From assembly GCA_976226885.1 (NCBI GenBank), contig OZ320322.1:29016001-29080000 (forward strand): a DNA stretch of 64,000 bases. Reading direction: 5' to 3'. The translations under genes and the position numbers were made by a program. The notes below the pieces were generated by a model. That model saw only the letters and a list, made by a program, of their open reading frames with translations. It was not told the origin of the DNA and ran no database searches. The stretch is from Iphione sp. A-MEVVRFRX5 (Eukaryota). Below are positions 53,001 through 64,000 of the stretch, piece after piece; the stretch's first letter is position 1, and every line of letters begins with the position of its first letter.

Positions 53001-56000
53001 TGTGCCCTACATATTCTCCTCATGGTATGAAACTTTGTCAAAGGCAAATGCAGTTGACGCTCACTTAGAGACCACATCACAGGTAAGACCAGACCACAAC
53101 AAAGACTAGACTTAATACATTTATTTCTATATAGGGATTTCTTTCTTTTACTACCTCTATATAGCAAAACGATACGAGAAGAGACTAGACCAAAGTTTAT
53201 TGTAGTGGTATATGTTAATTATATATACACGTGTACAACTGATACGAGGCCCATTTTTTGAGTATCTTAGAGATGGGTTTGTTCATCACAAAGAAATAAT
53301 TTCATTAGGAAGGAGCTTTTTTCTAGTGGTTTCGCTAAAAGAGGTACAACTGTACAAATATTGTTGTATTGGACAATACCTTCCAGCTTGAGGCTCAGTC
53401 ATTGCAATGGCACCAATACATTTTCCTGCTGTCATTCTAGGTAGAAACTTCTCTATCTGTTCTTGCGTGCCATATGAAGAAATATAAGGCATGACAATTT
53501 CTGAATGAAGTTGGAATCCAAATCCATAGTCGTTCACGTAGCCCCTGAAAAAGGTGTTTGCAACATGGGATTACAAAGTGCACTCGGTATATACAGCTGA
53601 TAAATATTCCTCCTGAAGTGGTTCTTTGCTATAAAATTCACAGTACTTAGTTCAATGTATGTTGAAAAGTACATGTACAACCAGGTACAGTGTATAACTT
53701 CTTGAGTCATTTAGTGGAATCAAATGCGTCTAGACGTTCGTTTGTTGTATGGGCTCTGCTCCCCCAAAGGGGAAGCGAGGTGCTTCACCACAAAGCACAG
53801 TAACTGGCTTCAAGGCCTGTGTCTCTATTATAGTTCTTGAGAATTGCTTCGAAGTCCCAGGCTTGGGAACACATACAGGCTCACCCATCATAGGCTACTG
53901 TTGAGAAAACGTACAGTCGATTCTCCCCCTTTGTACATGTCTGCAACGTGGACGCAACTCAAATGCAGATGATTCAGCTCAGAACGGAATAAATTGGCAT
54001 ACATAATGTACATGTATGTAGATGTGTAAACCATCGAAGTATTGATGAATAAATAAGGTCCACCAGTAGATCCAGTCTTGATCATTATTCCATGAAGGTT
54101 AACAAGCAACTGACAACAATCACAGTAGCTTGGCTGTATTTATAGATCTTGGCCCCCATTTTCTATGGGGCCAACACTGTGATAATACCAGTGGATGCTG
54201 TCCCCCCACAATGTAGCAATACCGTGTCAATACAACAATACAGTGGCAATACAACAATACTGTGGCAATACCAGGGAACACTGTCCCCAACATAACTCTG
54301 TATTTACACCAGGCCCTCCTTCTAAGCATCCGTGACAAACAACTTATTTGAGATATCACAATATAACAAGACATTTCTAACCGGTACACCAATTTTCACA
54401 GAGCATCCCCCCCTCTCTCAAGGTGTTGTCACTGAATTTGGGTTAACAGTGAGGCTTTAGAGGTACTTTTCACAAGTTGACATGAAAACCCCCTGTAGAC
54501 GTGTTGTCACACTGATTTGGAGCTGCAGGGAAGCCTTAGAGCACTTTTACGAATACTGATGAATAAAGATACTAGAAACCCCAAATTGAACAGTTCTTGG
54601 CTTTATTTATGAGGTTGACATGTAACAATCACAAGCTATCGTGGTGTCACCACCACTTCATCAGGTGAACATGTGAAGCAACGGTTCTGGCTAACTGGCT
54701 TTTATACTAAACAGTTGCTAGTGTTTATTTGCTTGGTAACAAATCACAAGGGGCCTTGCCCACAACAGTTCTGCAGTCAAGTCTAGGATAGATGCTGATT
54801 GGTTGAAGTAATTATTAATGTCAATAGATCATGAATCTGAATCAATAATGAGTAACAAGTCCAAAAAAGTCCAGAATAACTATCAATAAGCTCTGGAAAA
54901 AGTCCAATAACATCTGGAATAGGAAATATCAACAATAATCACAGTTTAAATATCACAGTAACAATAAAAAAAAAAACGGTCATGTCCGGAGGCGGTCCGA
55001 GATCAAGGCAGTGGATAATGGCAGTGTGATACTACATGACCAAAGGACTAATTGTGGCGCTGGTTAATCCAAGATGGTAAGTAACGATGCTTCAAGTGCA
55101 TAAAGATCACAAGGTCCTCAGCCAGTGCAGGAGACAGTTCTTCTGCTCGAATGAGGAAGTCCCAAATCTGCCGGTGAGTAAGTCCATACGGTGGGGAAGT
55201 GACACTCGGTGGAGTGTCTGTAAAGCCCCCATGTGGAGTATGAAGAGGCGGAACAATGGTGTCGTCCCGTGTAGATGTGATCACAGTAATAGCGGTGCTG
55301 GCTGAGGACACCAACTCGGTTGAGTCAGTGCTCGAGATGGTCATCGGAGTGGATGTGTCTCTGGAGTTGTCAGTGGCTGTGTCTGTCTTGGTAGAGTCGC
55401 TCCCCGAAATCACAATCGGGGAGTTGGAGCTGCCTGACTTGGTTGGTACATGCTTGGCCGCCCCCGGTGTACCGTCGTCATCATCGTCGTCGCTGATGTA
55501 TAAATCATCATGCAGTTGGGTTCTGTCGGTCACAGTTGATGGGGTGGTGGGGGCTTGGTTCTCTTTGTCGCCCGGACGAGAGTGATTGGTAGAGTTGTCA
55601 GAATCTTCGGTTAGATCGATGTACTGACAGCCCTCCATAGGAGTCGCAGGTGACTGTAGTGCAGGGAACCGGCGTTGTTCGGGAGTCAAGTTAGTGCCCA
55701 CCGATAAAATGGAGCTCGCATCGTATAGGCACCTTGTCATACGGATGTGGTGTTCATCTATGAGAGGGGTGCCAGCCTCACTTGGGGTGTTTGGTAGCTG
55801 TGGCTCACTAGTCGGTGGCTTGAACCTAGGGAACCCGTCGCGGTTGATGATACCCCGACCTGTCCCAGGCTCGACTGGGTGGTTAATCAGGGTGCGGCGT
55901 ACTCTGCTCTCTGCAGGTGGGACCCAAGGACCAGGCTGAAAGGCATTATTGCTGGCATCACTGTTCAGATTACTGGCATCCCCCCCTGCTCCCATATGCT

Positions 56001-59000
56001 TGTCCTTGTGATGGCGCTGCAAGGCTGATTTGTGTGTATAAGTTTTTGGGCAAAGGTCACATTTAAATTCCCTTGCATAATCTTCATGTTGCTTGGCTAG
56101 GTGTGTCCTAAGCGATTTAGTCCCAACCAACGGCACCTTGCAGACCGGGCAGTCAAACACAACCGACGCCATTGTATCGTCGAACAGATCAAACGGTTCA
56201 AAAACGTCTTACCGGAGCGGTTGTCAACGGTGGGAAGTTCACAACGGTTTACGCAACTGTTCGACTGTTCATTCACGGATATTAAGTTCCTGTGGTCTGT
56301 AAGTTTGAAGCAGTATAATCAACGACTCTTCGAGCCGCAACCGTTCGTTAAGGTGGCACGCGCTGTTGTCTACACACATAATCGTGACGTCATCGATAGT
56401 GCAGTTCGCGTTGAAGTGGAGAGCCACCGGCTTTATTTCTCGACAGTTTCTTATGTCGTTTAAGTGTTGCAACAACCGTGTGTGAACGGTATTACTTGTT
56501 TGGCCGATATATTTTTTATGGCAACGGTTGCACATAATACAATATACGACATTGGTCGAACGGCAGTTGTTGTTGCCGACTGTTCGAAACCGTTGGCTGC
56601 CGTCGTGGTTGGCAACCGACGTTCCTTCAATAACACGGGCGCAGGTTGAACAACGGGGTCTGCCGCATCTACTCATCCCTCTCTGCCTCACAGGTTTTGG
56701 ATAGGTAGAATTTGTCAATATTTCCTTCAGGTTTCTGTTTTTTTTTGTAGGCCATGATAATGCAATATTGTAGGAGATTTGCATTCCCAGGTGAGTGTGC
56801 TAAGATGTTGTATGCCTGTTGTACAGTCTGTTTGTGAGAAGGTTGTGTGGGACCGTGATAGGTAGTGACATAGGCAATTTTCTTCTCGGCAGCTATTGTT
56901 TCCTCTTGAAAGATGGATAACCTATCCATGGTACGTACCCTCCTGTAGCTCTCAATCAATAGTTTCCTGGGGTAGCCTCGTGCTCTGAAATGGCCCATCA
57001 TAGTGTTGGCGAACATGTCGAAAAATTTGATTTCTGTGCATATCATCCCTACCCTCAGTAGTTGGCTGAATGGGATTGAAGATTTTTGTGTATGGGGGTG
57101 GTAGCTCTGGTAGTGTAGGTACAGATTCGCATCCGTCGGTTTCTTGTGGAGTTTGGTGAAGAGACGATAGTTCCTTTTGTAGACCACTGTGTCCAAGAAG
57201 ACTATTTCCTCCTTGCTTGATTCATGGGTGAATTTGATCGTATCATGGGCTTGGTTCAGGTAAGTGATGAATTCTTGTAGGTCATCATCAGTGCCTCTGA
57301 ATATCATGAAGATATCGTCGATGAAGCGCAGCCAGATACGGGGTTGTCGTGGTGCATCCCTCAGTAGTTTCCTTTCAAGGTGTCCCATGAAGAGATTAGT
57401 GTAGCTCGGTGCCATTTGTGTGCCCATTGCTGTTCCATGTTTTTGATGGAATATCTTGTTGTCAAACGCAAAGCTGTTGAATTTTAGGATGTACAGCATC
57501 AGTCTTAGGATGACCCATGTGGCTGGTTCTTGTGTAGGTCCCTGCATGAGATAGTCCCTAGTGGCTGCGAGGCCTTCAGAGTGGGGAATGTTAGTGTACA
57601 GGGCTGATACATCCACGGTAACCAGATGGTCATCGTTGTTGATTCTGATGTCAGAGATCTTCTCAATAAAGTCTTTGGTGTCGCGTATGTGACTGGGTAG
57701 GTTCGTAACATAGGGACGCAAAAAGCAGTCGACGTAGGACGAGATCTTCTCGGTCGGGCAACCGCAGGCGGAAACTATTGGGTGCCCCGGTACCCCCATT
57801 TTGTGCACTTTGGGTAGGAAATAAATGGAAGGCGTACGTGGGTTCTTGATGACCAGGGCGTGTGCAGCATCTGTGGGTAGAGCACCAGTGATACAGCATT
57901 GGTTAACAAAGTTCTTAATTTCAGATAGATATTCGTTGGTTGGGTCATGGTCTAATTGTTCATAGTGGAGCTGGTTCGTCAATTGGCGATATGCTTCGTC
58001 GACGTAGTCTGTAGTGTTTTGGACTACTACTGCACCCCCTTTGTCCGCTTGTTTGATAATGATAGATGAGTCTAGGCTGAGGGAACGGATGGCCTTCACT
58101 TCGTCTGGTGTCAGGTTGTTGCGGGCTGACGGTACATTTCTCACTGGTAGCTGGCCTTCTATGGTGGTTAAGTAGCAATCGAGGAACTTGTCCTTGCCTT
58201 GTTGTGGAGTCCATCCAGAGGATTCCTTGAGATGGCTTAGCGGTGTGATCACTTCTTCACGGTCCTGGTCCTGAAATAAATGTTGTAGTCTCATACGGCG
58301 TGCAAATAGGTAGAAATCTCTGTATGTGTGGGCAGGGTGCGGGTTTGGGCTTGTTGGTATGAAAGTTAGTCCCCGCGTCAGCAGGGTGGTCTCGGCATTG
58401 TTTAGGACTCGGTTAGAAAAATTTATTACCGCGGTGGTCTCGGTTGAGGACGGAAGGATGTTTGGGATGCGGATGAACCTCCTGTTTTTCGGCTTCTGTG
58501 TTCCCGGAGTTCTGTCTTGAGGCTGGTCTCGTAGTTGTCCAGCAGGTTGATGACCGTCGTGTGTTCTTCCGTGCTGATCTCCGTTTTGGCCCTTTCTAGT
58601 AGGGTGGCCAATTCTGCGTTCAGTCGGTCGCATCTGGATTTCCAATAACGATGTAAGATTTCTGTCAGAGATTGTGCTAGACCGGTGACAGCTGTTTCCC
58701 ACTCTAGCAGGAATTCAGTTGATATGTCGGGGATCTGTGCTGTGACGTTTGGAATTAGGCCTCTTGGTGCTGTGTGCATGGATATGTGGTGTTTTAGTAG
58801 CGTTTGATGGTGTCGGGAAGTGATGCACCCTTTCTTCACTTTCTTCAGAGTGCAATACCATACGTTGCTCTGTTGTGATAATGGGCCGGGCGACGTGGGT
58901 GCTGTCAGAGTGTTCGTAGAAGAAGATGGCGACGGTGTGCGTGGTCTTGTAGGTCCTGTTGTGCTCGTGGATGGCACTTCTAGTAGGTTCGTTTGTTGAC

Positions 59001-61626
59001 CTTGTGCTGAGGTTGTTCGTGGGCGCTTGTTAGTAGGTTTAGAGCCTCCCTCGGTTGCCATAGTGTTGCTCCTGTGTTGGCTGACGCCTCTCTTGGCAGC
59101 GGATCCATTGGATACTGTTGGCGGACGGTTGCACCTTCAGCTGGTTGAAATAATTGTATTCCGCGAACTGTACGCTGTCGTTGTAGGAGCTTGTTCTTCA
59201 ATGGGGGATCCAAATGGATACAACTAGTAAACTGTGTGTGAAAACTGATGAATAAAGATACTAGAAACCCCAAATTGAACAGTTCTTGGCTTTATTTATG
59301 AGGTTGACATGTAACAATCACAAGCTTTCGTGGTGTCACCACCACTTCATCAGGTTAACATGTGAAGCAACGGTTCTGGCTAACTGGCTTTTATACTAAA
59401 TGGTTGCTAGTGTTTATTTGCTTGGTAACCAATCACAAGGGGCCTAGCCCACAACAGTTCTGCAGTAAAGTCTAGGATAGATGCTGATTGGTTGAAGTAA
59501 TTATTAATGTCAATAGATCATGAATCTGAATCAATAATGAGTAACAAGTCCAAAAAAGTCCAGAATAACTATCAATAAGCTCTGGAAAAAGTCCAATAAC
59601 ATCTGGAATAGGAAATATCAACAATAATCACAGTTTAAATATCACAGTAACAATCCAAAAAAAAGGTACATCACTTTTACGAATATTACTCTTCTGCACT
59701 TTTACGAATATTACTCTTCAAATTCAGCACTTTTTGGGCTCTTGCTTATCAAATACAGCACTTTTGGGATGTGGTTTAACCCCAATTCCATATCCTTCTA
59801 ACAGATCTATAATACAGACACATCTGAAATCAGGGCAGCCTGGGGAAGAACTGAGGATGTCCGGACTTGGGAGAGTTGACTATTTGCACTGGATGTACTT
59901 TCAGATGTGGACTCATAAACAAAACAAACTTCATCAGGGCCAACCTAGCTTATTGAGCCTGGGGAGGTGTGCAACACACTGCTCATAATTAACAGCTCCC
60001 AATTAACACAGCACCTGAGTGTGGTGATGATTGACAGGCAAGCGAGACAGTAGCATGATGGTGTGCTCTCAATACTCGATGTGTTTATGTGCAGCCATCC
60101 CCCAGTGCTGGGATTACAGTGCTAAGGACACTCCCAGAGTATGAGTAGCACCAGACTTGCTGGTGTAAGGGGAAACATGACACCCATAGAGGGGGGGACT
60201 ATTCCACTGACGAGGTGGTGCCCCACAAGTGTATGCATTGCTGGATGTAAAAACCCTAGATAGCAGACTACTCCATAACCTTCAACAGGGCATGCTCCCT
60301 ACAGGGTTAGAGGCTGGTGAAACCATTGGCCCAGCCTACACATCAAGTTGGCATAACATGGGTCTAGTGTAATATGTATGTTCATTTGATGTGAAACTGC
60401 TCGAACTCTAGAGGTGCTTGGTGCCCATGCGATTATCCACTTATCCTGTTCGAAATGCCTGTCATTTGCCTGTAATACCTTTTCTATACTTACTGTTCTT
60501 CCCATGAAATGGCCGCATACATTAAGTCTGCGCCCAGCCCGTAATGTTCCTCAGGTGTGGTTACTCCGAGCAAACCTTGGGCACCGGCAAGTTCCCATAA
60601 CTAGAACAAATACACATGATCGGGGTAAATCATTTGGTCTAAGGCTGACAAGGGATTACAGTAAATGGAACAGCGAATCCTTTTGTCAATTAAGTGAGAA
60701 CAGCAATGAAGGGGTTGCGTTTATCGGTTCTTTCTTGTATTTAGTGTCGCGAAGTTCGTGTATACAGGTAACAGGTATACCTCTGTTAACAAAATGGATG
60801 AATGGCTAAAAATCACCTCATTGTGAGAAATTTCATTAACAGAGTTATGCATGTCCATCAGAGCACCTTAGAATCTTTATGTTACACTTGTTATGAAGAG
60901 ACTTTGTAATAAAGGAACTTCATTCCTAGAGGATTCGCTAACACAGATACACCTGTACATGTGTATCGGAGAATGTGAGGATACACAAGAAATACATCAC
61001 TCTTGCCAGTTTACTATAGTTACTGTGACATTGATAAATCGGCACATTACCACAGTTTGTTTCTAATTTAATTGGAAGCTGCATTGCAAATGCATATACG
61101 GATCTGATAAATACTATAGCTCTTACTCACCTCACGGTCGACTTGGCCCTGTTCTTCATATCTGATGAATAACATATATATGTCATTTACAGTACAAAAC
61201 ATTCACCGACATTGCCTGTTATTATAGCATTCGTTTAAGTTTCCAAAATGTCTATTTACAATGAAAGAAATATAAAAATACCTCTTTCTATTGATGATAA
61301 ACGGTACAAACTACAGGCTTGAGACAAACATGTACATGTACTTAAAATTACATTCCAAGCATCACAGCATATCATGGGGTTTAATCTCCATAGACGCATT
61401 TCAACTCAAATAAGCGCACCTGTCATTATTGGGCACCAATTCCTCCCGGAAGAATTTCCTGGCGCTTGCCCTGAAAATGTCATGCTCCTCAGTGAAAATC
61501 TTCCTGATGCCAATGTCCATGAGGTTAGCGGCGTCGGCTGGCTCAAGCCTATGTTTCATGTTGCCCTCATTATTGGTGATATCGGGGGCTGCTTTGTTCG
61601 ACTGTCTGCATACCTGGATTCCTGCA
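50092..61626 (-). CDS. ACADL: Long-chain acyl-CoA dehydrogenase, copy B, 5'-partial; complement(join(50092-50272,51354-51481,51709-51933,52349-52580,53380-53544,60494-60600,61131-61161,61420-61626))
   Basis: Eight in-frame exons with the same phases as copy A and the same sizes for the six internal exons (31, 107, 165, 232, 225, 128). There are no stops and the same ACADL motifs are present. Exon 1 was not found before the LTR element at 61862. The exon 2 acceptor (61626) is the best of several nearby AGs. Confidence 0.92.
52703..52879. mobile_element. Small Tc1/pogo-like MITE
   Basis: TA|CAGTGGAACCCCTC ... GAGAGTTTCCACTG|TA. Confidence 0.75.
54555..54965 (-). repeat. 3' pseudo-LTR of the Penelope-like element
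   Basis: Seven substitutions relative to 59244-59654 and no indels seen (about 98% identity). Confidence 0.95.
54618..54674 (-). ncRNA. Minimal type I hammerhead ribozyme, core variant (GAAA to GAUA)
   Basis: On -: acaugu-ucac CUGAUGA A GUGGUG guga CACCAC GAUA GC UU guga-uuguu-acaugu. Stems I and II are intact and core A14 is mutated. Confidence 0.7.
55048..56172 (-). CDS. Penelope-borne accessory ORF, 374 aa: two N-terminal C2H2 zinc fingers, Ser/Thr/Pro/Asp-rich middle, helical C-terminus
   Basis: Intact intronless ORF with a strong start context (ACAATGG). It has CPVC-x12-H-x4-H and CDLC-x12-H-x4-H, and lies between the GIY-YIG stop and the 3' pseudo-LTR on the same strand. Confidence 0.8.
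   Translation of the reverse strand: MASVVFDCPVCKVPLVGTKSLRTHLAKQHEDYAREFKCDLCPKTYTHKSALQRHHKDKHMGAGGDASNLNSDASNNAFQPGPWVPPAESRVRRTLINHPVEPGTGRGIINRDGFPRFKPPTSEPQLPNTPSEAGTPLIDEHHIRMTRCLYDASSILSVGTNLTPEQRRFPALQSPATPMEGCQYIDLTEDSDNSTNHSRPGDKENQAPTTPSTVTDRTQLHDDLYISDDDDDDGTPGAAKHVPTKSGSSNSPIVISGSDSTKTDTATDNSRDTSTPMTISSTDSTELVSSASTAITVITSTRDDTIVPPLHTPHGGFTDTPPSVTSPPYGLTHRQIWDFLIRAEELSPALAEDLVIFMHLKHRYLPSWINQRHN
56269..59061 (-). CDS. Penelope polyprotein (N-terminal domain, RT, Cys linker, GIY-YIG), ~930 aa after correcting two homopolymer frameshifts
   Basis: RT motifs KQADKGGAVVV, YFLPKVHK, HPIVS, DVSALYTNIP, GTAMGTQMAPSY and WLRFIDDIF. Linker CGRPRCSTC. Endonuclease VVYCIMCNRCHKKYIGQT...R...H...E...LN. 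The three track ORFs overlap exactly at A-runs. Confidence 0.88.
59244..59654 (-). repeat. 5' pseudo-LTR of the Penelope-like element (CCAAT, TATA, ribozyme, polyA signal)
   Basis: On -: CCAATCAG, then TATAAAAG (59388-59395), the hammerhead, and AATAAA (59291-59296). Confidence 0.95.
59307..59363 (-). ncRNA. Minimal type I hammerhead ribozyme with intact core
   Basis: On -: acaugu-uaac CUGAUGA A GUGGUG guga CACCAC GAAA GC UU guga-uuguu-acaugu. It has a 6-bp stem II and a palindromic AAGCUU stem III, with predicted cleavage between 59322 and 59321. Confidence 0.8.
59990..60370 (+). repeat. Third copy of the dispersed TGATTGACAG repeat family
   Basis: GATGATTGACAGGCAAGC (60026) ... ACTATTCCACTGA ... 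AAAACCCTAGATAGCAGA ... AGGGTTAGAGGCTGGTGAAACCATTGGCCCAGCC. Confidence 0.65.
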
Positions 61627-61861
61627 CTACAGACCGAGGAAGAGACTTTATTATCTAAGTGTGTATCATGTAAATCAGACCATGTATGAGTTTATGAGAC
61701 CAAACCGTGGGACAAACCAGTGACACTCAGACCCTAGCTTGGCGTCCCCTGTAGGCTGCAACTGTATTTTAATTATAGTATATATTATAATGTGACGAAA
61801 GAATAATAATGAAACGTATTCTTATCTTTCTGCAAAGGTAAAGATTATTTACAATTAATAT

Positions 61862-62297
61862 TGTAACGTGACTAACGTAGAGAGAAATGACAAGTCAACG
61901 GACCGAGCAAAAATAATCTTGAGAAAAAGTAGAATATAAGTTTCACTCCAATATACACTAATTCGTCGTGCATGGAATGGTCTCTCTCGTATGTGCAAAG
62001 AGAAAGGGGTCTGTTTATTCCAGAAAACATGGGTTTATATATGACAGTGTTACATAAGAGTTGCTAAAAATAGGATGTCTAGACACCTGCATATGCGCAG
62101 CAAATAAACAGTCCGCGAAGTACCCCAACTACGCAGCACCACAATCCGTGAGATACCTCTACTACGCAATACCTCTATTGGTCCGGAAGTCGTCACGGAT
62201 CGCACTCTATCCCGGATCGCGGATTCCGTTGCGGACTATTCTCACGGACCGACCTTCTCTCTAGCACTATACACTCTTATGACATGCCTACGTTACA
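61862..62297 (-). repeat. 3' LTR, 436 bp
   Basis: 8-bp inverted termini TGTAACGT...ACGTTACA, with internal TATATAAA (about 62034-62041) followed by AATAAA (62014-62019) on -. Confidence 0.8.
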
Positions 62298-63040
62298 TTC
62301 TCCCCTTCTTTAAGAGGGAAACTTATTCGCTTTTTACTGAAATATCTTAAATTATGAGTATTACTTTTTATCTTGTTCTCTATATAAATGATTTTTCGGG
62401 TACGAGATGTACTTCTCGTCTAAAAAGTTTTTCTTTGGACTATTCGAAGTCCTTACGGATTATCTATAATTTTATCTTTCTTTCTATTTCGATTACTGAA
62501 AAGGTGAAACAAAATTCTATAGATAAAATTCGATATACTTTATTCTTTCTCCTTAAGGGAGTTAAAATATATTTTTCTTTTCTTTTGAACACATGGCATC
62601 TCAACATACATCAATACAATCTTCACGGATCATGTCAAGAAAATAAAAGATATGGAAACGGATCGACCTTTCACGAACTCGTTACTTAGCGGTCTAGTAA
62701 AACTGAAATTCGAAATAATGTCTTTTTGTATCATCACAGTTCGTCTTTTACCTTGAAAAAGGCATTCATAAATAGTAATATCAAAAATATGCGAGCAATA
62801 TTCATAGTAAAATCATCATGCGCTTCCGGTTTAGTTCCTTTTCGCGCGGAAAGTCATTTCCGGTTCAGTTCTTGCGCTACTGTCACGTTGTTGGACTATA
62901 CTTTTTGGGACGATAAATTATGGATTAAGATCTCTGAAAAGGAATTACAAACAGCATTTGGCATTCACAAATAATCAAGGACGGCATTAGGCATGAATGG
63001 ACTAGAAATTATCACTACTTTAGTCTTTCTCAACTGGATT

Positions 63041-63985
63041 TCACTCGCGGGGCGCCCAAGTGCCCCACGTATGCGTGTCGAGGACGGGGTGCGTCTCCTC
63101 CCGGATCCTCGCCTGCAACGTGTTGTCTTGCCGTCGTCTGGTGTCCCGAGCAAGGACCAGCTGACCCTCTATGTTCGTGGGCGACATCCCTTGAAACGCA
63201 GCTTGGACTTGAAGAGTGGAGATCTGGTCGACAGTAATGTTGTGCCTCTGGAACTCAGAATTGTCGTGCCAGAATTCAGGGTTGGAGGGTTTTCTTGCAC
63301 CGGGCAGTATCAGGTAGGGCCGGTCCCGCAACGGACCGAACGGATCGCCAGGTGCCAGCACTCCATCCTTTATGGCCTCCATCGTTGCTGCCGACAGAGA
63401 CACCAGATACTTTTGCTCAGGTGTGAGCACGTCCCAGTTGACTGGCGGCCATGTGATGTCGACCCTCAGAGGTACCGGATTCTGAGGAGCCGTCCTGGCC
63501 GTTCCACTAAATGGGTACACCGTCCCATCAGCTACTTCAGTCAGCCACCGGTTGAAAGCCGAACCGGATTCGTTGTCTGGTCGAGGTCGCTCTGGTGGTG
63601 GAATCGCCTTCTGTCCCGTCTTTTCTTTCTTCTTGCCCTTGCTTGCTATCATCTTGCCGCCTACGGATTTCCTCGCAGTGTTCCTCGGTGGTTGCGGCTG
63701 CTGAGGAGGCTGGAACTGCACGTCCTCCTCAATCTGTTTGTCCCGTCTGCGTAGCATCCGTTTCTCGCTGGCTTGATCTTGCTGCTCCAGTCTCTGCTCG
63801 TCAGAACTGGTAGTCTGCTCAATATGCTCATCCTCTGTCGCCGTTCCCGTCTCGTCTCGATCCTGCTTCTTCCCAGCCTCGATCCCCTCTTCCAAGATAC
63901 CAGAAGAGATCTCGACTAGAGTTTTAGGAGCGTCCGCAATCAGCTTCTCCACTTCCTCGTCCATGGATGGGGTAGTGCTTATCAT
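63041..63985 (-). CDS. LTR-element ORF of unknown function, at least 314 aa, with a histone H3-like TARKSVGGK motif
   Basis: Stop-free, on the same strand as the PPT and LTR. The frame stays open to the window edge, so it may be the tail of a longer ORF. It has an acidic N-part, a Gln/Pro-rich linker, a basic patch and a probable folded C-part. Confidence 0.7.
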   Translation of the reverse strand: MISTTPSMDEEVEKLIADAPKTLVEISSGILEEGIEAGKKQDRDETGTATEDEHIEQTTSSDEQRLEQQDQASEKRMLRRRDKQIEEDVQFQPPQQPQPPRNTARKSVGGKMIASKGKKKEKTGQKAIPPPERPRPDNESGSAFNRWLTEVADGTVYPFSGTARTAPQNPVPLRVDITWPPVNWDVLTPEQKYLVSLSAATMEAIKDGVLAPGDPFGPLRDRPYLILPGARKPSNPEFWHDNSEFQRHNITVDQISTLQVQAAFQGMSPTNIEGQLVLARDTRRRQDNTLQARIREETHPVLDTHTWGTWAPRE

Positions 63986-64000
63986 GCTGATATCACTAAT

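Follow-up and report, generated by a model that had tools for sequence, protein, structure and literature searches.

Locus and element architecture

The window, that is, the whole 64,000-base stretch of DNA analysed here (G000:C22:29016001-29080000), ends within an LTR retrotransposon (Table 1). Reconstructed from the window and the neighbouring DNA, the element measures 9.4 kb and carries 5' and 3' LTRs that are 100% identical. It belongs to the Ty3/gypsy group, as judged by its TG...CA LTRs, a target-site duplication (3 of 4 bases match in the focal copy), a primer site, presumably for tRNA-Leu, and a polypurine tract. Among its reading frames, gag (490 aa) comes first, followed by pol (1,100 aa) with its stop, then by an antisense ORF of 271 aa, and finally by ORF3 (517 aa). 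Gag features a CCHC knuckle (zf-CCHC, a weak Pfam match, E 0.011), and pol features the domain order PR-RT-RH-IN: RVP at 29-115, RVT_1 at 251-410, RT_RNaseH at 474-602, and, for the integrase part, Integrase_H2C2 at 728-786 and rve at 801-898. The earlier note had assigned the frame beside the 3' LTR, here ORF3, to an LTR retrotransposon, and this assignment holds.

Table 1. Features of the locus, in window positions
Feature	Position	Strand	Remark
Penelope-like element	54551-59539	-	300-base terminal direct repeats (97%)
Probable acyl-CoA dehydrogenase exon	61401-61691	-	on the strand of the 3' LTR and immediately downstream of it
3' LTR (TG...CA)	61862-62297	-	100% identity with the 5' LTR, which lies outside the window
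3' untranslated stretch	62298-63040	-	ends in the polypurine tract beside the LTR
Antisense frame over the motif, 253 aa	62993-63754	+	judged spurious
ORF3, 3' part, with its own ATG	63041-64000	-	start 594 bases past the window edge, G000:C22:29080594
ORF3 C-terminal helical domain (WPPxxW ... LxLPG)	63041-63568	-	common to all relatives
Basic patch KGKKKEK, candidate nuclear localisation signal	63620-63640	-	putative role; translation
Extended H3 K4-A15 register	63650-63685	-	RNTARKSVGGKM in the focal copy; sequence comparison
H3 T6-K14 look-alike TARKSVGGK, ORF3 aa 306-314	63653-63679	-	translation and host H3
Linker island ISGISDISMISTTPS, ORF3 aa 191-210	63940-64000	-	part of the island

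ORF3 starts approximately 1.4 kb after the pol stop; it is a separate frame, and the fusion to integrase that the earlier note had asked about is not found. The protein combines two C2H2-like fingers (Pfam matches below the cut-off) with a C-terminal helical domain that matches no Pfam family; between them runs a linker of approximately 230 residues, disordered in the structure model. Foldseek retrieved C2H2 fingers alone, at E 0.3 or worse, from models that are poor (mean pLDDT 46), and VIA-align of the poorly modelled C-terminal domain reached a best Z of 5.4 with generic helical hairpins and no clear fold match. Pfam gives no chromodomain match. ORF3 likewise carries no env-type Pfam match and no hydrophobic stretch, as judged by Pfam and by eye.

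The 271-aa antisense ORF lies between pol and ORF3 on G000:C22 just past the window (L017:1177-1992, plus strand). It is 92-98% identical across seven older copies, three of which contain a stop, and 34% identical to a sister family; it has no Pfam match. A conserved acceptor is located upstream in 13 of 15 elements, and 12 of these 13 feature a GT[GA]AGT donor 114-127 bases before it. The ORF is probably a spliced gene that stands back to back with ORF3. All three young copies read contain a further frame of 323 aa (L017:5769-6740, minus strand) that overlaps gag from a start 7 bases upstream; long overlapping frames of a similar kind also occur in sister families. The antisense frame of 253 aa that covers the motif was rejected as a gene: it is open in the youngest clusters and interrupted by one to three stops in older ones.

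Two neighbours of the element also lie in the window. The probable exon beside the 3' LTR, which we take to be ACADL-like, matches Acyl-CoA_dh_N below the cut-off (E 0.022). The Penelope-like element has an RT frame, matched by RVT_1 at E 2.4e-10, as well as a 386-aa C2H2 zinc-finger ORF.

An H3-like segment in a constrained accessory gene

ORF3, whose frame stays open up to the edge of the window, encodes TARKSVGGK, directly followed by MIASKGKKKEK. The H3 genes of the same genome read TARKSTGGK, so that 8 of 9 residues are identical, and the likeness to H3 residues 6-14 described in the earlier note is borne out against the host's own genes. The peptide is present, but its earlier numbering as aa 103-111 had been counted from the first Met in the window; its true position is aa 306-314 of 517. 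A low-confidence model shows the segment as disordered, with a pLDDT of 30-40 and without secondary structure. An ARKS in gag was considered as a second mimic and rejected: it stands in the context DEARKSEL with no further H3 match and occurs in three of five older copies checked.

In a six-frame scan of the window, at least six matches are reached at this position and nowhere else. Based on composition, the chance per ORF is 1.3e-6 for this particular 9-mer; it rises to 7e-5 if any 9-mer from H3 1-36 is allowed. Shuffling of the local 31, 51, and 121 residues reaches an 8/9 match in 4, 1, and 12 of 200,000 cases, respectively; in the looser BLOSUM-score test, 1 of 200 shuffles reaches the score of the focal copy. 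Many older copies read KNTARKSVGGKA, which is identical to host H3 K4-A15 at 10 of 12 positions and is matched by none of 200,000 local shuffles. A single copy in the genome, the old copy L234 (G000:C1:10530597), reads KNTARKSTGGKA with 11 of 12 identities; its exact H3 core arose by two base changes within one codon. The genome pattern TARKS[not G-start]GGK yields 47 matches—20 H3 genes, 25 family copies, and 2 unrelated ones—with 1 in the control. For a single protein, the match goes beyond chance; for a scan as large as the present one, it does not safely do so.

Approximately 1,190 copies in the genome bear the motif. Two motif patterns gave 1,198 and 1,199 matches with 6 and 7 in the controls, and among the 100 matches listed per pattern, 98 and 97 are of the family type. 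For the C-terminal domain, all 150 scored matches are 99-100% identical. Outside the genome, one search for ORF3 homologues returned none, a search among 1.84 billion representatives returned one match (P0001, E 1.7e-7), and a further search returned ten outside matches. A profile of 16 ORF3 sequences found no matches, and no related loci were found in metagenome and viral contigs. The top Atlas matches (0.90-0.92), unnamed and with low recognition, and the value of 0.75 obtained with P0002's C-terminal domain were set aside.

The selection sample consists of 137 in-frame copies out of 139 distinct ones; it had been drawn partly by the motif itself and is motif-enriched. For variants shared by three or five copies, omega amounts to 0.05-0.09 in the fingers, 0.15-0.17 in the main linker, and 0.13-0.16 in the C-terminal domain. 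These values are far below the 0.56-0.86 of rare ORF3 variants, which indicates purifying selection on the ORF3 of active elements: ORF3 is a separate accessory gene under purifying selection.

Of the 137 in-frame copies, 122 have the motif intact, 14 differ by single scattered changes, and one carries the exact H3 core. In the motif-bearing lineages, which diverge by up to 19.5% at the DNA level, codons 305-314 show five synonymous and no non-synonymous lineage-level changes, and the windows on either side show four amino-acid changes each. Compared with the rest of the linker in these lineages alone, this is no significant excess of constraint (p=0.17), with 5 of 23 ten-codon linker windows equally invariant. 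With the motif-free sibling lineage (see below) included, the motif counts 7 synonymous to 4 non-synonymous changes, on a par with the 139:71 that the linker shows on average (p=1.0). At lineage level, the K4 (-5) position is occupied by K or R and nothing else, and the change of V11 to T is seen in one copy and never at lineage level. V-to-I was rejected as a lineage change, the 22 copies concerned being scattered over different backgrounds and the site being a CpG. The most constrained island of the linker is ISGISDISMISTTPS (25 synonymous and 4 non-synonymous changes), which recurs as LDVSDxS in sister families and presumably resembles a SUMO-interaction or phospho-motif. It may be more important than the H3-like motif.

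Motif-free relatives and mosaic history

A motif-blind pattern placed in the C-terminal domain gave 89 matches (control 0), of which 30 were read. Fourteen belong to a sibling lineage with approximately 85% identity and the sequence KK[T/M/I]A[E/G]KSVSGK, another 14 are motif-free and come from families mostly 56-71% identical over ORF3, and 2 are more distant. The sibling lineage of the E type comprises 101 copies (control 0) reading KK[T/M]AEKSVSGK[A/V], with E for R8 and S for G12; even without R8, its peptide has 7 of 12 identities to H3. Identity within LTR pairs ranges from 97.2-99.8% in this lineage (7 of 10 measurable) to a similar 97.0-99.3% in old motif-bearing copies (8 of 10 measurable). 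The ages match, so the sibling has transposed without the motif. Since R8 is essential for SUV39H1, SUV39H2, and G9a (PMC8303541, in part), the E-type lineage moreover transposed without a working K9 mimic. The expectation that the motif is kept across the family thus stands for the motif-bearing lineages, where no amino-acid change occurs at lineage level, and fails for the 101-copy sibling without R8 and G12.

It does not extend to farther relatives either, all of which are without the motif: ARK[ST] is absent in the ten outside homologues and in the sister families with 27-30% identity. The 56-71% relatives without the motif do keep a basic patch of the type K[GS]GKKKDK. Three sister families (L149, L151, and L136) feature at ORF3 aa 127-156 a basic stretch in register with H3 1-30 but without ARKS, for example AGAAPRKMPARQAKRK compared with GGKAPRKQLATKAARK of H3. 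Its score is reached by 1 (L149), 4 (L151), and 2 (L136) of 200 local shuffles, and in related families by 26-35 of 200. The likeness is marginal, and the stretch is probably a bipartite nuclear localisation signal.

Pieces of the motif are already found in the relatives: L296 has RKSV with the same 12 bases, L280 reads KKSVEKS-RGGK (6 of 12 to H3), and L283 and L290 read EK-VGGKA. This points to assembly of the motif in place, within an indel-prone basic linker, rather than to capture. Judging by these relatives, the Val at T11 is inherited from them and is not an altered H3 Thr.

The 5' and 3' parts of ORF3 give discordant trees, which points to a mosaic history. In a tree of aa 1-293 (24 rows), the E lineage is joined by the main lineage with the motif (98/98), and a single clade of motif-bearing copies is rejected (p-AU 0.001). 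In a tree of aa 357-517 (24 rows), the motif-bearing copies stand together (91/96), with the alternative not rejected (p-AU 0.069). A second analysis agrees with these trees. Among informative sites, 57 of 58 in codons 1-303 are of the sibling (E) type, 6 of 6 in 305-313 of the motif type, 6 of 6 in 315-337 of the E type, and 25 of 33 beyond 357 of the motif type; the alignment to outgroups is ambiguous for the order of R type and E type. The simplest reading is that the dominant lineage took up a motif-bearing 3' part by recombination, that is, by template switching. Motif-bearing copies outnumber the motif-free sibling by about 12 to 1, a contrast that rests on one or two recombination events in which C-terminal sequence moved too.

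Candidate function, rival readings, and known systems

According to published enzyme specificities, SUV39H1 prefers K or R at the -5 position and accepts A, G, S, or T at +2, SUV39H2 reads T11 accurately, and DIM-5 requires T11 (PMC8303541, PMC3248561, both in part). The Val at T11 (+2) lies outside A/G/S/T and speaks against the SUV39-type substrate envisaged earlier, the comparison being with human and fungal enzymes rather than with those of the host. ARKS fits the EHMT consensus [ASGNLKEC]RK[SVT...] (PMC10611923, in part), a short consensus present in 8,230 human proteins; in ORF3, the RK core stands in an H3-like context.

From these features, a mechanism can be proposed. ORF3 would be nuclear, as its basic patches suggest, and its two C2H2-like fingers would bind nucleic acid, plausibly that of the element itself. 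G9a presumably tolerates Val at +2, and the putatively exposed K309, the K9 equivalent, could be methylated by a G9a/GLP-type enzyme. The methylated peptide might then occupy HP1-type chromodomain readers near the element and draw K9 writers and readers from, or to, element chromatin, a local decoy being favoured. That the motif acts as a functional, though optional, H3K9 mimic is the reading we favour, although as a proposition it is evenly balanced. The full scenario—an H3K9 decoy that evolved convergently on a zinc-finger accessory protein and shields its own copies, and whose recombinant lineage took over the genome—is tentative and, as a whole, rather unlikely. The peptide is unnecessary for transposition; it may nevertheless confer an edge, because the motif lineage outnumbers its motif-free sibling.

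A serious competitor, which we rate somewhat below an even balance, is incidental likeness: an indel-prone basic linker rich in K, G, S, T, and A, serving nuclear or nucleolar localisation, would have drifted into the H3-like sequence, which would be no more conserved than the remaining linker. The motif pieces in L296, L280, L283, and L290, the 7 of 12 identities that persist in the sibling without R8, and the lack of excess constraint across the family (p=1.0) are as expected from such drift, and so is the H3-tail scoring of unrelated linker stretches in L149, L136, and L151 (1, 2, and 4 of 200). At 7e-5 to 2e-6 per ORF, moreover, such matches are expected among some 250,000 windows. Drift accounts less readily for 10 of 12 identities centred exactly on K9 and reached by none of 200,000 local shuffles, or for lineages that leave the motif unchanged between variable residues on both flanks; the stronger basic patch behind the motif would also make it dispensable as a nuclear localisation signal. 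Between these readings, the sequences identify the motif as a real, lineage-restricted, and dispensable H3K9 look-alike.

Two further readings are far less probable. Tethering of the integration complex to heterochromatin via HP1, raised in the earlier note, draws on the sequence likeness and on the chromatin tethering known for C-terminal parts of integrase in other LTR elements. It is improbable: ORF3 is a gene of its own, separated from the pol stop by 1.4 kb and the antisense gene, and 4-bp duplications of ATAT/ATAC occur in 8 of 11 clean motif-bearing and in 5 of 8 clean motif-free elements. With ORF3 lying apart from integrase, and with motif-bearing and motif-free elements similar in the 4-bp target sites they prefer, the tethering claim is left without support. 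The copies on contig C1, furthermore, spread from 3 to 174 Mb, and the focal copy lies approximately 200-300 bases from the acyl-CoA-dehydrogenase-like exon, itself a weak Pfam match (E 0.022). Capture of the segment from a host histone H3 transcript, for which the exact H3 core of L234 with its 11 of 12 identities could be cited, is largely refuted and very improbable. At third codon positions, the segment agrees with the host H3 gene in 2-4 of 12 cases, the likeness ends at A15, and the relatives contain both the pieces and the V11 common to them.

Histone mimicry is already known from viruses and from cellular proteins. H3-tail mimics have been described in influenza H3N2 NS1 (ARSK), adenovirus protein VII (AKKRS), and SARS-CoV-2 ORF8 (ARKS) (PMC10208167, in part); the status of ORF8 as an established precedent, which the earlier note had assumed, is disputed (PMC10833455, in part). 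Like these, ORF3 is an accessory protein of a selfish element, and its short H3-tail motif is restricted to some lineages. In contrast to them, the match is longer (8/9 to 10/12 as opposed to 4-5 residues), internal, and part of an endogenous retrotransposon, and is described here from its sequence. G9a, among cellular proteins, methylates itself. The H3K9 mimics WIZ and LIG1 are methylated by EHMT1/2 (PMC10611923, in part). They share with ORF3, which is probably a nuclear zinc-finger protein, the RK core in an ARKS context, whereas the ORF3 motif is transposon-encoded and its match extends to G12-G13-K14. The cellular mimics are not known to match H3 through these three residues.

Within transposons, the Ty3 integrase chromodomain features a helix, alpha0, that mimics a histone tail (bioRxiv 10.1101/2021.07.27.453949, in part); this mimic is structural, intramolecular, and inside integrase, whereas that of ORF3 is a linear match in a separate ORF. 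A literature search covering few subscription papers found no accessory ORF of a transposon with a linear mimic of the H3 tail, and neither did the available portion of PMC13524379. The VANC proteins of Arabidopsis VANDAL/MuDR transposons are proven anti-silencing proteins (PMC12859917, PMC13547354, both in part). VANC and ORF3 have in common that a transposon-encoded accessory factor is proposed to act against host silencing of its own family. ORF3 differs from these plant DNA-transposon factors: it lacks a VANC Pfam match, belongs to another protein family, and would be anti-silencing by inference. Factors of the VANC type reactivate their own family in trans by binding DNA sequence-specifically; for DNA binding, ORF3 offers weak C2H2 matches. 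Escape from H3K9me/HP1 silencing is poorly explained for animal retrotransposons, and the anti-silencing proteins found in the literature are from plants. If the decoy reading is true, ORF3 would be an animal histone-mimicry counterpart of VANC, with motif-plus and motif-minus siblings in one genome. These natural R-type and E-type siblings make the question of mimicry directly testable.

Extra ORFs between pol and the 3' LTR are known from Grande (gene23), Retand, and RIRE2 (PMC7264820, in part), and the C. elegans element Cer1 carries an additional ORF, CERV (PMC10309623, in part). As in these systems, sense and antisense ORFs are kept in most copies of the present element, a nuclear accessory role is likely, and an own promoter is possible; so is a CERV-like role of ORF3 in RNA export, by analogy. 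ORF3 differs from them in its order of zinc fingers, linker, and WPP domain and in having no Pfam family beyond the weak C2H2 matches. The word histone is absent from the accessible text of the plant accessory-ORF review (PMC7264820), and the gag-pol-antisense-ORF3 layout is not described in the portions available of PMC8556966 and PMC8220671. Even if the H3 likeness is incidental, ORF3 and the putatively spliced antisense gene form a pair of accessory genes, both conserved and unnamed, in an animal gypsy lineage that is active. The same layout of gag, pol, antisense ORF, and ORF3 recurs in at least four further families, which are 67% identical to the focal family in pol and 27-30% in ORF3. 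Their LTRs are 98.9-100% identical, indicating that the whole lineage is active.
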